This document shows positions 6,835 through 15,642 of a DNA stretch of 58,798 nt, piece by piece (within the stretch, counting starts at the first letter, position 1; every line of letters starts with the position of its first letter). The stretch comes from Opitutaceae bacterium. GTDB taxonomy: Bacteria; Verrucomicrobiota; Verrucomicrobiia; Opitutales; Opitutaceae. The stretch is from the NCBI GenBank assembly GCA_035299125.1, contig DATGXA010000350.1, positions 1 through 58,798 on the forward strand. The letters are read 5' to 3'. Under the pieces are notes generated by a model. It ran no database searches. It was not told where the DNA came from and saw nothing but the letters and a program-made list of their open reading frames with translations. Position numbers and translations under genes: made by a program.

Positions 6835-7290
6835 CTACTGCAACGGCGGGATGGCAGCGGCCATGAGGTTGAGGCGGCCGTTTTTCACGCCCTTGCAGGT
6901 CACGAGCTCGTCGGTGAGTTTGCGCAACTCATCGGCCCGGCCCTGCACGAGCAGCACCTCGAGGTAGTTGTGGTGCTCGAGATGGACGTGCATCGAGGAG
7001 ACGATCAGCAGGTAGTAGCGGTGCTGGATCTCGGCGAGTTTTGCCTGCAGGTCACGCTTCCGGTAGTCGTAGACGAGCGAGATGGTGCCGCCGACGGAGC
7101 CCGACTCAGTCTGGCTGGCGAACTCGACCAAGCCGTCGCGCGCGAGTGCGGCGATCGCCTGCGAGCGGCTCTGGAAACCGCGCTTGGTCACCATCGCGTC
7201 GAGTTCGTCGAGCAGGCTCTCGGGCAACGAGACGCTGAAGCGGGCGACCTTGTCGGGTTTGCGCGGCGCGCGGAGCATGGCGTCGTCCAT
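6835..7290 (-). CDS. nikR: NikR-like ribbon-helix-helix metalloregulator (atypical metal site)
   Basis: This is the C-terminal 151 codons of track ORF 6835..7677. RHH domain 'ARFSVSLPESLLDELDAMVTKRGFQSRSQAIAALAR'. The ACT-like domain 'SLVYDYRKRDLQAKLAEIQHRYY...MHVHLEHHNYLEVLLVQG' aligns without gaps to my recollection of E. coli NikR ('[22 protein letters not shown]...LHVHINHDDCLEIAVLKG'). The start is ATG 7290 (or 7278). Confidence 0.8.
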   Translation of the reverse strand: MDDAMLRAPRKPDKVARFSVSLPESLLDELDAMVTKRGFQSRSQAIAALARDGLVEFASQTESGSVGGTISLVYDYRKRDLQAKLAEIQHRYYLLIVSSMHVHLEHHNYLEVLLVQGRADELRKLTDELVTCKGVKNGRLNLMAAAIPPLQ

Positions 7291-7348
7291 GCCAGAATCC
7301 GCGCCGGTCGTCGAGGCCGGCGCGGAGGAGGAAACGGTGGAGGTCGTA

Positions 7349-8710
7349 TCAGAAGAGCCGGGCATACCGGTCGACTTCCCATTGGCTGACCGTGAGGTGG
7401 TAGGCGCGCCACTCGTCGGTCTTGTAGGTGATGAACTCGTCGCGCAGCTCCTGGCCGAGCACCTTCGTGACGAAGGGATCAGCAGCGAACTGTTCCACGG
7501 CTTCCTCGAGATCGCGCGGCAGGTAGCGGATCCCGCGCTTCGCCAACTCGACGTCGGAGAGTTCGTAGAGGTTCTCCTCCTGTGGATGGCCGGGATCGAG
7601 TTTCTCGCGAATGCCCTCGAGGCCGGCGGCGAGCAGGAGCGTGGCGCCGAGGTACGGGTTGCAGGCGGAGTCGGCATTGCGGCTCTCGCAGCGGCCGCCG
7701 CCCATCGGCACGCGGATGGAATTGGTGCGGTTGTTGGTGCCGAAGCTGTTGAAGACCGGCGCCCACGAGTAGTAGCTCATCGCGCCGCGGCGGATGAGGC
7801 GCTTGTAGCTGTTCACCGTCGGCGCGAGCGCGGCGCAGATCGCCGGGCCGTGGCGGATGATGCCCGCGATGAATGAATACGCCAGCGGCGTGAGCCCGAG
7901 GCCGCGGGGGTCGTCGTTCGGATCGCACTTGAAGGCGTTCACCCCCGAGGCGAGTTCGTAGAGCGACATGTTGAAGTGCGCGCCGTTGCCCGTCTTGTCG
8001 GCGAAAGGCTTGGGCATGAACGTCGCGAGCAGGCCCTCCTCAGCGGCGTAGTGTTTCGCCATCATCCGGAAGAAGACGTAGCGGTCGCACATCGTGAGCG
8101 CGTCGGCGTACTTGAAGTCGAATTCGAACTGCGAATGCGCGTCCTCGTGGTCGAGCGAGTAGAGGTCCCAGCCGAGCTGGTTGATCGCGGTGGAGACCTT
8201 GTCGAGCCAGGTGTAGCGGTCGAGGAAGCGCTTCACGTCGTAGCAGCTCTTCACGAGGTTGTCGTCGGAGTTGGGGATCGAGAGCTTCCCGTCCTCGGCC
8301 TGCTTCACGACGAAGACCTCGCACTCGATGCCGAGGTTGAAGCCGAGGCCGAGCGTGGCGGCGTCGGCGAGGACGTTCTTCAGGGCGACGCGTGTATTGA
8401 TGCCGTAGGGCTGGCCGTGGAAGGTGTTGTCGGCCGGGAACCAAGCGACCTCGGGCTTCCACGGGAGCTGGAAGCCGCGGTCGAGGTCAGGCAACGAGGC
8501 GATCTCGTCGTCGTTGGGGCGCTGGCCGAGGCCGTCGAGCGCGTAGCCGGTGTAGAGTTCAGAGCCGTGCGCGAAGTGGAGGAAGTGGTCGATCGGGACG
8601 AACTTGCCCTTGGGGATGCCGTGGATGTCGGTGTAGGCGCCGACGCAGTATTTGACGCCCTTGGCTCTGAGCTCGGCCTGAAGTTTGAGAATCTCGGAAT
8701 CGGGTTTCAT
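7349..8710 (-). CDS. Glutamine synthetase family protein (GlnT / gamma-glutamyl-amine ligase-like)
   Basis: 453 aa. GS catalytic-domain motifs '[15 protein letters not shown]'-like ([18 protein letters not shown]), '[20 protein letters not shown]', 'NSYKRL' and 'NRTNSIRVP...[13 protein letters not shown]'. Confidence 0.9.
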
Positions 8711-8723
8711 CGGACGGAGGGAA

Positions 8724-8833
8724 GAAGTTGGAAATTTGAAGTTGGAAGTTGGTGCGGAGTACGGACGGACGGTCGGCCTTCGCGCTGGCGGTTCGCCTCC
8801 GGGATCAATCCCAACTGCAAACTGCCAACTACC
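8724..8833. repeat. REP-like imperfect palindromic intergenic element (copy A)
   Basis: Left arm GAAGTTGGAAATTTGAAGTTGGAAGTTGG (8724-8752). Right arm CCCAACTGCAAACTGCCAACTACC (8810-8833). The arms match at about 18/22 positions when one is reverse-complemented. It shares an exact 14-mer, GGTAGTTGGCAGTT (reverse complement of 8820-8833), with copy B at 11674-11687. Confidence 0.7.
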
Positions 8834-13748: not shown

Positions 13749-14368
13749 GCGGTCTTCGGCTTGATGGCGAAGAGCACCTCGCGCTCGATCCAGGCGATCA
13801 CGGCGTCGAGGCCCTGCTCGCTCTTGAGGTCGCAGAAGAGAAACGGCCGTGCGCCGCGCTGCGCCGTGGCGTCGCGCTCCATCACGGCGAGATCGGCGCC
13901 CACGTGCGGTGCGAGTGTGATTTTGTTGATGATGAGCAGATCGCTGAAACGGATCGCGGGGCCGCCCTTGCGGGGGATCTTGTCGCCCTCGGCGACGTCG
14001 ATCACGTAGATGAACGAATCAACCAGCTCGGGGGAGAAGGTGGCGGAGAGGTTGTCGCCGCCGCTCTCGACAAGCACGAGCTGCAGATCGGGGAACAACA
14101 CCTCGAGGCCGCGCACGGCCTGCTCGTTCATAGTGGTGTCGTCGCGAATCGCCGTGTGCGGGCAGCCACCCGTCTCCACGCCGACGATGCGCTCTGGCGC
14201 GAGCGCGCTGTGGCGGCGGAGGAACTGCGCGTCCTCGAGCGTGTAGATGTCATTCGTGACGACAGCCATCGAGTAGCGCTCGCGCAGCTTCTGGCAGAGC
14301 CGCAGGCAGAGCATGGTTTTGCCGGAGCCGACAGGGCCGCCGACGCCGATGCGAGGAGGACGGGACAT
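13745..14368 (-). CDS. ureG: Urease accessory GTPase UreG
   Basis: P-loop 'GGPVGSGKT', metal motif '[13 protein letters not shown]' and '[11 protein letters not shown]'. Confidence 0.95.
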
Positions 14369-14437
14369 TTTCGATTTTGGTTTTTCGATTGCGGATTACG
14401 GAAGGCGCGCAGGCGCGTGAGCGAAACCCAACTGCGG

Positions 14438-15154
14438 TCAGGAGATGAAGAGCCGGAAGTCGGCGGACTCGTGGCGGGCGGAGGCGATGTCCCACCACGG
14501 GTTGAACGTGCCGAGCTCCTCGAAAGGGCGAGCAGGTGCGGCGGCGACTTCGGCTTCGCCCGCGGCGAGCGCTTCGGCGAGCAGCGTGTGGCTGGCGTTC
14601 TGGCCGAGGCGGAGAAGTTTCACCGCTGCAGCGACGAGCGCCGAGATCGTGCCGTAGAGCACGGCGGCGAGCACGGCTTCGCGTGGCACGCCGAGCGCAC
14701 GGCCCTCGATCGCTGCGGCCACGCACGACGGACGCGGCCAACCGCCCGCGGCGGCGCGGCGGTTGAATTCGGCCGCGGGTCCACTGTCGCCATGGACAGT
14801 CACCGCGAAATCGAGACGTTGCGCGCCGATGGCGGCCGAAGCGGAGCGGAGCTCGCGTGTGCCGCGCAGCGCGGCGCCGAGTGAGCAAAGTGTGTGTAGC
14901 GTCTCCCAGTCGGGCGACGCGCCGGCGGCATCCCACGCGCGCGCGGCGATCGGCAAATCCGTGCGGCCGAGCTGCGGCACGGCCTGCCCGAGCAGAAACT
15001 CACGCAACGTGCCGCGATCGCGCACCGCGCCGGACTGCACAAGCCCCTCGAGGCCGAAGGAGTGTGCGTAGGTGCCGGTCGGGTAGAACGAGTCGGTCGT
15101 CTGCAGCAGCCGCGCTATCCACGAGACGGAGACAGAGGCGGTGAGCTCGCTCAT
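14438..15154 (-). CDS. ureF: Urease accessory protein UreF
   Basis: 'LLQTTDSFYPTGTYAHSFGLEGLV' and the C-terminal 'DFRLFIS'. The start overlaps the ureE stop by 4 nt. Confidence 0.88.
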   Translation of the reverse strand: MSELTASVSVSWIARLLQTTDSFYPTGTYAHSFGLEGLVQSGAVRDRGTLREFLLGQAVPQLGRTDLPIAARAWDAAGASPDWETLHTLCSLGAALRGTRELRSASAAIGAQRLDFAVTVHGDSGPAAEFNRRAAAGGWPRPSCVAAAIEGRALGVPREAVLAAVLYGTISALVAAAVKLLRLGQNASHTLLAEALAAGEAEVAAAPARPFEELGTFNPWWDIASARHESADFRLFIS

Positions 15155-15642
15155 GCGCGATTGGCGACGGGTTTGAAGAGGAACGGATGAGCTTCCGGGC
15201 CGGCCGCGTGGCTGTGCGGCGCGGCACCGGCGGCGAATCGATGCGGACGGAAGACTTCCGCGATCGCGCGGTAGGCTATGCCGAGGCGATCGAGAGACTG
15301 GCGCAGAGCGGTGTCATCGGGCGCGAGCAGGCGAGCGGGTTGTGCCTCGATCGGAAAATGAAGATTGCCAACAGCCCAGCCGGTGACCGCCGCGGCGTCG
15401 GATGCGGTTGGCAGAGGGATTTCGAGCACGGGTTCGGGCTGTTGGCGTATCACGTAGCGCGCGGCTGCGTCAGCGAAAACGGCGTCGCCGTGTGTGAGCG
15501 GCCCCGAGAGCTCGAAACCGAATTCGGCACCATCGGCGGCAACGGCGCGCCAGAGGCGTTTCGCGAGCTGGCGCCGCTCGACGGGGATCGAGATCTCCGG
15601 CAGCGCGGAATCGGCGGTGATCGCGGCGTGGACAAGTATCAT
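15151..15642 (-). CDS. ureE: Urease accessory metallochaperone UreE
   Basis: 163 aa. 'LTHGDAVF', 'AVGNLHFPIE' (compare the GNRH motif) and a His-containing tail 'AAPHSHAAGPEAHP'. Its position heads the ureFGD genes. Confidence 0.75.
   Translation of the reverse strand: MILVHAAITADSALPEISIPVERRQLAKRLWRAVAADGAEFGFELSGPLTHGDAVFADAAARYVIRQQPEPVLEIPLPTASDAAAVTGWAVGNLHFPIEAQPARLLAPDDTALRQSLDRLGIAYRAIAEVFRPHRFAAGAAPHSHAAGPEAHPFLFKPVANRA

Follow-up and report, generated by a model that had tools for sequence, protein, structure and literature searches.

In a 58,798-nt contig of an Opitutaceae bacterium (DATGXA010000350.1, analysed over its whole length and referred to here as the window), ten genes on the minus strand between positions 6835 and 15642 combine the urease accessory genes ureEFGD with genes for an ABC importer of the NitT/TauT type, a creatininase-family hydrolase, a paralog of glutamine synthetase (GS) and a NikR-like regulator. 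With a probability of roughly 0.78, we read this cluster as two separate nitrogen-regulated units: ureEFGD would serve an ordinary urease whose structural genes lie off the end of the contig, and the ABC unit would have its own promoter and belong to the regulon of the urea/guanidine carboxylase. The presence of urease maturation genes without urease would then be explained by the contig end and by an insertion between convergent ure operons, and no new nickel enzyme would be needed.

The cluster had been described before in a reading made from the sequence alone, which counted eleven genes; our count is ten, with families typed by Pfam and NCBIfam (Table 1). These searches bore out the family assignments of the sequence-only reading (ureE-F-G-D, ABC importer, creatininase family, GS family, NikR-like) and also the absence of urease structural subunits from the 58.8 kb, since neither tblastn with Opitutaceae subunits nor Pfam searches of the large open reading frames (ORFs) yielded a match to UreA, UreB or UreC. 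Three of its four ATGA overlaps are as described (15151-15154, 10606-10609 and 9692-9695); the fourth, at 13745-13748, reads GTGA because ureD starts with GTG.

Urease accessory genes and the probable location of ureABC

The family domains of UreE, UreF, UreG and UreD are all present and intact. The set looks functional, because UreG has kept its P-loop (GSGKT at residue 13) and its Cys-Pro-His motif (CPH at residue 68) and UreE the GNxH histidine, which are nucleotide and metal motifs of these two proteins. With the UreD of the window as query, we fetched 80 loci from species-representative genomes and mapped the relevant genes on each; these and the other fetched loci are numbered with L in the following. 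Two locus arrangements occur among the nearest relatives by UreD (56-87% identity). In one (L008, L011, L013, L016, L018-L021), ureCBA-urtED comes 0.1-6 kb after ureEFGD, with the strand reversed; in the other (the window, L007, L009, L010, L015, L017), the ABC-creatininase-GS-NikR genes come after ureD and, where the contig runs on, two DUF1989 genes (DUF1989a/b) and urea carboxylase come next. Compared with L008, where ureEFGD faces ureCBA-urtED, the UreE/F/G/D proteins of the window show identities of 85/87/95/79%, and compared with L010, which is arranged like the window, of 77/87/96/78%; over the loci with adjoining ureCBA, identity in UreD is 79-81%. As the similarity to both locus types is equal, the ureEFGD genes of the window are the same orthologous urease accessory genes.

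Searches with the UreC of L008 matched a protein of 98% identity (P0125) on a 4,545,136-bp contig, which also holds L003 and L010, and a further protein (P0132) on a 908,702-bp JGI contig, which also encodes the creatininase-like protein closest to that of the window (P0002, 92%). In GCA_047602505.1, to which the first of these contigs belongs, ureC (2,852,468-2,854,237) and ureD (2,875,454-2,876,290) are 21 kb apart. There, urtABCDE-ureABC ends at 2,854,237; allophanate hydrolase, urea carboxylase and two DUF1989 genes lie on the other strand, and onward on that strand come NikR, GS, creatininase, the ABC genes, a 610-aa gene, ureDGFE, GNAT, DUF7010 and mnmE. In the JGI contig, the distance is 30 kb (ureC ends at 768,006; ureD 798,041-798,886). 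Its gene order is that of the window from mnmG to DUF4266, except for one extra methyltransferase gene after NikR; DUF4266 is the last gene shared, and the window breaks off within the one that follows. By this colinearity, ureC should lie about 15 kb beyond position 1 of the window, and ureABC would be missing from the window because the contig ends there. The left end of the window is 84-92% identical at the DNA level to L089, upstream of and into the 1088-aa Ig-repeat gene of that locus. As a separate observation, contigs of runs X2 and X3 have a joint at window positions 1-824, recorded as 'goes back 264', which fits an assembly break caused by repeats.

Metagenome data agree with this placement. 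In run X1, from the source metagenome, all sampled words of the window were present at a depth of 11-13, and contigs with a depth of 11.5-11.6 match ureC, ureB, ureA, urtE and urtD of L008. For GCA_047602505.1, the UreD scan returned a single ureD locus, with copies down to 37% identity being detected elsewhere (second Nibricoccus locus); because only this one locus was found, the urease of that genome probably depends on the accessory set adjoining the ABC operon. Of the two possibilities that the sequence-only reading had put forward, that of a split urease locus is thus supported, as the closest relatives have urtABCDE-ureABC 21-30 kb from the orthologous ureEFGD. The search for ureABC elsewhere that it had proposed, run in relatives, found these genes either beside ureEFGD or at this distance; for the second ureDEFG set that it had asked about, the relative checked was GCA_047602505.1, with the single ureD locus as the result.

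Scattered ure genes, with the accessory genes apart from ureABC, are known in cyanobacteria. As in these split loci, the accessory set is intact and the structural genes are elsewhere on the chromosome in the closest relatives. The arrangement differs from cyanobacterial scattering in consisting of two convergent ure operons, with 21-30 kb of inserted nitrogen-scavenging genes between them.

Within the cluster, a sequence that closely matches the sigma-54 -24/-12 consensus, TGGCACATGCCCTGCT, lies in the 110 nt that separate ureD from the binding-protein gene. The corresponding pattern, TGGCA(C/T)-N5-(C/A/G)TGC, occurs upstream of the binding-protein gene in nine of nine orthologous loci. Among the nine are L004 and L006, where no ure genes precede it, and L003, in which it lies downstream of the inserted 610-aa gene, which parts it from ureD. 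Upstream of ureE, a second element of this type, TGGCCCGCGGCTTGCT, corresponds to the pattern TGGCC(C/T)-N5-(C/T/G)TGC, which is kept in loci of the window type as well as in loci with adjacent ureCBA. These elements suggest that ureEFGD and the ABC operon are two units, each with its own predicted sigma-54-type promoter of the nitrogen type. A sigma-70 promoter scan found none.

A leaf-litter metatranscriptome contains a 3906-nt contig, from a relative about 92% identical, that spans the ATPase, creatininase and GS genes and a further 1.27 kb beyond. In the same runs, the 3' part of ureD is covered at a depth close to zero, a value of little weight since contig depth is a poor measure. The ABC-creatininase-GS module appears to be expressed in nature, allowing for possible carry-over of DNA. 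Over window positions 6000-16500, metatranscriptome runs X21-X24 (wastewater, leaf litter) also gave contigs with the GS, creatininase, ATPase and ureG genes from relatives at 90-95% identity.

The 28-bp element and the carboxylase regulon

Just downstream of the binding-protein promoter lies a 28-bp element made of two similar heptamers (Table 1), which over the loci takes the form GTAACAC-N14-GTARCAC. The pattern GTA[AG]CAC-N12-16-GTA[AG]CAC has 15 matches in the 1.42 Mb of fetched loci, and all of them precede either the binding-protein gene or the operon DUF1989a-DUF1989b-urea carboxylase-allophanate hydrolase (for instance at L003 13108, L006 12812, L009 13941 and L017 17039). The copy at the carboxylase operon directly follows a sigma-54-type element, cGGCAC-N5-TTGCA. 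Three more genomes again have the element solely at these two operon fronts (L091 10574; L092 4248 and 10516; L093 6824), and no copy was found near ureE, urtA or ureA in those fetched loci that hold these genes. Because the element is common to both operon promoters, the ABC operon would seem to belong to the urea/guanidine carboxylase regulon.

The element looks like a protein binding site shared by the two operons, and not like a structured RNA, because its offset from the promoter differs between the two sites, its spacer sequence varies and the leader folds no better than shuffled sequences (z = −1.1 for the ureD/binding-protein spacer; the creatininase-GS spacer gave −1.4). Control by a riboswitch (ykkC/guanidine) was dropped, since no Rfam family, riboswitches included, reached its gathering threshold in the window, L003, L004 or L006. 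An obvious candidate for the protein that would bind the element is the NikR-family protein, whose gene closes the first operon and directly precedes the second. Tetrameric ribbon-helix-helix (RHH) proteins of the NikR family bind two half-sites about two helical turns apart.

The comparison of gene content across genomes separates a constant from a variable part of the cluster. In L003, L006, L009, L017, L091, L092 and L093, the importer is next to the DUF1989 pair, urea carboxylase (UC) and allophanate hydrolase (AH). Opitutales ASA1 has the order urt-ureABC-ureEFGD-MOSC-ABC-NikR-DUF1989ab-UC...AH, with all genes co-directional, and Synoicihabitans has urt-ureABC-ABC-NikR-DUF1989ab-UC-ureEFGD; both are without creatininase and GS genes. 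TAV5 and Nibricoccus have ABC-creatininase-GS-NikR-DUF1989ab-UC and Termitidicoccus has ABC-creatininase-GS alone, in each case with no ure genes nearby. The loci concerned are L004, L006 and L092 for the module without nearby ure genes, and L091 and L093 for ABC-NikR-DUF1989-UC without creatininase and GS. Judged by gene content, the constant core is the importer, the NikR-like regulator and the carboxylase pathway, which is the known 'urea carboxylase-associated' neighbourhood. The creatininase and GS proteins may be assumed to work as a pair, because their genes are gained and lost together across genomes. Urease genes appear as frequent neighbours in varied arrangements, yet seem not to be tied to the creatininase gene. 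In more distant Verrucomicrobia (L063 11670-17000; L076 11472; L083 4139), urea carboxylase and/or allophanate hydrolase genes are found beside or inside urease clusters, so that the two urea-degrading systems cluster recurrently.

The periplasmic binding protein, whose 331-aa start agrees with the gene calls in relatives, has the 'urea carboxylase-associated' family TIGR03427 as its second-best NCBIfam match (134.6 bits, below the cut-off of 333.9), and it scores equally on this family and on the generic SsuA family. Urea carboxylase, DUF1989 proteins (CgdAB) and allophanate hydrolase reportedly form the guanidine pathway described by Schneider and co-workers in 2020. The similarity to such carboxylase clusters is that, in relatives, the importer operon is directly followed by DUF1989a/b-UC-AH and that both share the 28-bp element. 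The differences are the lack of a ykkC/guanidine riboswitch, with control seemingly by sigma-54 promoters, the 28-bp element and the NikR-family protein; the creatininase-family/GmaS-like pair added inside the importer operon; and, in this window, the position of the carboxylase genes off the contig. Among carboxylase-associated importer clusters, the ABC operon is an uncharacterised variant, distinguished by the added enzyme pair and by its unusual NikR.

Regulator, hydrolase and ligase

An alignment of the regulator with NikR of P. horikoshii and H. pylori shows that the equivalents of His76, His87 and His89 are kept, and that the equivalent of Cys95 is a tyrosine. In NikR, His76', His87, His89 and Cys95 (E. 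coli numbering) form the high-affinity square-planar nickel site. Tyrosine occupies the position of the cysteine ligand in 120 of 120 nearest homologues (HVHLEHHNYLE), whereas 107 of 151 aligned NikR-family sequences (150 representatives and the query) have cysteine and tyrosine is confined to the clade of the window protein. Other residues at this position (Thr, Ser, Arg, Val) occur among more distant representatives of the family. With its RHH and NikR_C domains, its three histidines and a candidate site of 28 bp, the length of the E. coli nik operator, the regulator resembles NikR of E. coli, H. pylori and P. horikoshii. It differs from them in the tyrosine, in a candidate site that is a direct and not an inverted repeat, and in its neighbours, which are genes of nitrogen catabolism and not of nickel uptake. 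That the NikR homolog strengthens a metal link, as had been proposed from the sequence alone, is not borne out, the canonical cysteine ligand being missing.

The creatininase-family protein scores 117.2 bits on the equivalog TIGR04448, below the cut-off of 235. The binuclear metal site of P. putida creatininase consists of Glu34, His36, Asp45, His120 and Glu122, where the glutamate of the HxE motif is a metal ligand. In the alignment to 3A6H and 1J2T, the E, H, D and H of the metal-site region are kept, and the HxE glutamate is replaced by threonine ('NTHVTN' vs 'NGHYEN'); 3NO4 is likewise without glutamate at this position. A true creatininase (EC 3.5.2.10) is ruled out by the score below the cut-off together with the incomplete metal site. 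The protein thus shares with CrnA of Pseudomonas putida (1J2T, 3A6H) the Pfam family and the E/H/D/H residues, but differs in the equivalog score, in the threonine and in having no creatinase or sarcosine genes nearby. A tblastn search of 72,556 plasmids found no match to it at E <= 1e-20, and hence no annotated copy from a model organism. In the literature, we found no paper on this gene combination when searching for creatininase together with UreG or nickel, with urea carboxylase or GS, with gmaS, and with the guanidine riboswitch or carboxylase; the 'creatininase' of M. smegmatis in the literature is msmeg_1425, which we take to be the mycofactocin gene mftE.

The sequence-only reading had left open whether the GS paralog serves assimilation or gamma-glutamylation. 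Its best matches among solved structures are the glutamate--methylamine ligase 9QUR (352 bits; about 50% identity, estimated by eye from the alignment) and RhGmaS (7CQL, 305 bits), against about 229 bits for true GS. Enzymes of the GmaS type are recognised by a tryptophan in place of the GS flap glutamate, by the catalytic residues Asp177 and Glu186, and by a methylamine pocket with Gln175 and Asn188 (PMC7948447). The paralog has the tryptophan at the position of the flap glutamate ('YYSWAPV' aligned to 'GATWSPN' of 7CQL) and keeps the residues aligned with Asp177 and Glu186; at the positions of Gln175 and Asn188 of RhGmaS, 11 of 11 orthologous copies have serine and aspartate. It is therefore like GmaS (7CQL, 9QUR) in scoring above the cut-off of TIGR03105, in the tryptophan and in the catalytic residues, and unlike it in the pocket, in the lack of N-methylglutamate (NMG) genes nearby and in having a creatininase-family hydrolase as partner. 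We conclude that it is probably a gamma-glutamyl-amine ligase; with serine and aspartate in the pocket, its amine could be one other than methylamine. That it is instead an extra glutamine synthetase, assimilating the ammonia freed by the neighbouring hydrolases, would agree with the name of its NCBIfam family ('type III glutamate--ammonia ligase'), with the presence of gltBD within the same window and with the weak acceptance of ammonium by GmaS enzymes (PMC7948447). Given the closer structural relatives, the missing flap glutamate and the fact that the presence of the gene tracks the creatininase-like gene, and not the carboxylase genes, we judge this unlikely. Of the two roles, gamma-glutamylation thus has the traits of a GmaS-like ligase in its favour, and a plain GS was set aside on these tests of family traits.

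Table 1. Genes and sequence elements of the window, with positions in the whole stretch; a sign in the third column gives the strand.
Feature	Position	Strand	Description
5' part of Ig-repeat protein gene	1-824	-	truncated where the contig ends; reading frame passes position 1 within the repeats
NikR-family RHH regulator	6835-7290	-	PF08753, PF01402; NF003381 144.2 bits (cut-off 105)
GmaS-like gamma-glutamyl ligase ('type III GS')	7349-8710	-	probable; TIGR03105 608.8 bits (cut-off 469.6)
Creatininase-family metallo-amidohydrolase	8829-9695	-	288 aa; PF02633 212 bits
ABC ATPase	9692-10609	-	PF00005; similar to ATPases for nitrate and taurine; ATGA overlap at either end
ABC permease	10606-11655	-	PF00528; TauC- and SaoP-like, below cut-offs
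Structured spacer	11656-11802	-	separates the binding-protein gene from the permease gene; two long hairpins, RNA fold of −75.4 kcal/mol (z = −6.3)
Periplasmic binding protein, NitT/TauT (NMT1/SsuA) type	11803-12798	-	PF09084, PF13379
28-bp element GTAACAC-N14-GTAGCAC	12813-12840	-	just downstream of binding-protein promoter; candidate operator or leader element
Sigma-54-type promoter element TGGCACATGCCCTGCT	12852-12867	-	pattern match; 54 nt upstream of binding-protein start
ureD	12909-13748	-	279 aa; GTG start; GTGA overlap with ureG; PF01774 142.7 bits
ureG	13745-14368	-	207 aa; PF02492; TIGR00101 305 bits (cut-off 204)
ureF	14438-15154	-	238 aa; ATGA overlap with ureE; PF01730 100.9 bits
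ureE	15151-15642	-	163 aa; PF05194 (UreE_C) 49.8 bits; GNLH motif at residue 91
Sigma-54-type promoter element TGGCCCGCGGCTTGCT	15735-15750	-	pattern match; upstream of ureE
GNAT gene	15841-16140		upstream neighbour of ureE
DUF7010 gene	16137-16706		upstream neighbour of ureE
mnmE	16894-18267		upstream neighbour of ureE

Competing explanations and further features of the window

The second possibility of the sequence-only reading was that UreDEFG is tied to the creatininase/GS route. UreEFGD would then load nickel into the creatininase-family hydrolase, alone or besides urease, as part of one nickel pathway regulated by NikR. The best precedent is a system of Synechocystis that Funck and co-workers are said to have described in 2022, in which a nickel-dependent guanidine hydrolase, GdmH, occurs with the chaperones GhaA/GhaB and an ABC importer; GdmH belongs to the arginase family, and its chaperones are of the HypA/HypB type. 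The cluster resembles this system in having importer, metallo-hydrolase and nickel chaperone genes in one neighbourhood. It departs from it in its hydrolase, which belongs to the creatininase family and whose gene the clustering does not require, and in its chaperones, which are orthologous to those of urease, a urease being nearby in relatives. The co-directional genes, the gap of only 110 nt between ureD and the binding-protein gene with no predicted terminator in it, the adjacency of ureEFGD to the binding-protein gene in seven loci (the window, L007, L009, L010, L015, L017, L089) and the NikR-family gene that closes the operon all agree with a nickel-loaded hydrolase. Yet the binding-protein gene has a conserved promoter of its own, the creatininase and GS pair occurs without nearby ure genes (L004, L006, L092), and ure, ABC, NikR and carboxylase genes cluster without creatininase and GS (L091, L093), so that the nickel-related neighbours do not track the creatininase gene. 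Moreover, the 28-bp element links the ABC operon to the carboxylase and was not found at ure genes in the fetched loci, close relatives have ureABC and, as far as found, a single accessory set, the NikR-like protein lacks the cysteine ligand, and the solved creatininases are Zn/Mn enzymes. A nickel supply from UreEFGD to the hydrolase is therefore very improbable.

At the other extreme, the ure and ABC operons could adjoin by a chance rearrangement, with no common physiology. The facing arrangement of ureEFGD and ureCBA seems ancestral in the clade (L008, L013, L016, L018-L021), the module lies elsewhere in Nibricoccus, with the ure cluster 2 Mb away, and the inserts vary between relatives (L003 has the 610-aa gene, L089 a block of 11 kb that runs from a methyltransferase to the Ig-repeat gene), all of which would fit a coincidence. 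Urease genes, however, adjoin the ABC-NikR-carboxylase block in at least four arrangements, the block being located between convergent ure operons (window type), after ureEFGD (L091) or between ureABC and ureEFGD (L093), or UC-AH coming directly after ureD (L063), and this points to selection for clustering genes that free ammonia from urea-like compounds. Coincidental adjacency, which the sequence-only reading had named as what would be left if it were refuted, is thus quite unlikely to be the whole explanation, the adjacency recurring in several arrangements across Opitutales.

The reading as two nitrogen-regulated units has points against it as well. Nothing resembling a terminator was found in the spacer after ureD, so that transcription may read through into the ABC operon; the predicted promoters and the 28-bp element are known only as sequence motifs; and the position of ureABC off the contig end is inferred from synteny and metagenome read depth in a genome that is not closed. 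L004 has the 28-bp element, yet no NikR-like gene within 10 kb. Neither the window nor the 20-kb loci of relatives contain genes for NMG synthase or NMG dehydrogenase, the enzymes by which gamma-glutamylmethylamide is normally processed, and what is proposed for the substrate and for the roles of the creatininase-like and GmaS-like proteins is guesswork.

Under the two-unit reading, ureEFGD would be the ordinary nickel-insertion machinery of an ordinary urease, with urtABCDE-ureABC about 15 kb past the left end of the contig, on the opposite strand and running towards ureEFGD; a block of nitrogen-scavenging genes would have been inserted between the two convergent ure operons in this lineage. 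The ABC unit would start at its own sigma-54-type promoter and comprise the importer, the hydrolase/ligase pair and the NikR-family regulator. The importer may take up guanidine, urea or a substituted relative, the creatininase-family hydrolase may open or cleave an amide or amidine bond of a cyclic or N-substituted compound, and the GmaS-like ligase may trap the freed small amine as gamma-glutamyl amide. The urea or guanidine moiety could then pass through the carboxylase, CgdAB and allophanate hydrolase, or through urease, and the NikR-like protein could repress both operons at the 28-bp element. More speculatively, the regulator could let metal supply decide between the nickel-dependent urease and the nickel-free carboxylase route. 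In an extended version of this idea, which we consider rather unlikely as a whole, the Tyr-variant NikR would be a sensor of a metal, possibly nickel, that binds the 28-bp element at both sigma-54 promoters and switches between urease and the ATP-dependent carboxylase in a nickel-sparing response, and the creatininase/GmaS-like pair would be a new two-enzyme branch that feeds in substituted or cyclic guanidino or ureido compounds and traps the alkylamine as gamma-glutamyl amide. What emerges is a clearly bounded operon, widespread in Opitutales, in which the genes of a creatininase-family hydrolase and a GmaS-like ligase stand between those of a NitT/TauT importer and of a Tyr-variant NikR. 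It offers a target for learning which small organic nitrogen compounds are scavenged by soil and root Verrucomicrobia, and its regulator a way to ask what a cysteine-less NikR senses.

Two long hairpins are predicted in the spacer that separates the binding-protein gene from the permease gene (Table 1); they may act as a processing or stability element that sets the ratio of binding protein to permease. The hairpin arms carry CCAACT(N)CCAAC repeats; similar CCAACT-type repeats occur elsewhere in the window only in the creatininase-GS spacer (8741-8829; 6 matches vs 0.6 expected). The 610-aa gene of GCA_047602505.1 (L003 4771-6603), between ureD and the binding-protein promoter, has weak retropepsin-like matches (Asp_protease_2, gag-asp_proteas), and small genes of PF05635 (23S rRNA intervening-sequence protein) are scattered over the same region in L003, L087 and L092.

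Upstream of ureE, gene mapping confirmed the unrelated GNAT gene and mnmE noted before. By Pfam, the remaining large ORFs of the window encode two-component systems, a methyltransferase, ApbE, DUF3570, a redoxin, GltBD, a giant ALTTAQ-repeat protein, a GT41 protein and VWA proteins; ORFs at 23.4-30 kb look like an ATP synthase operon, judged by ORF sizes alone. The nearest relatives of the window's proteins come from metagenome-assembled genomes of Opitutaceae (Verrucomicrobiota) from soil, root and water. The genes gltB and gltD (glutamate synthase, 36419-42649) represent a second nitrogen assimilation function, 21 kb from the cluster. The ALTTAQ-repeat protein (43810-52638) has 2942 residues with 56 repeats (PF20080), and its gene lies in a stretch with a very high G+C content of 0.70-0.72 and a strongly negative GC skew. 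It is followed by the gene of the GT41-type glycosyltransferase, which has TPR repeats (52695-54707).

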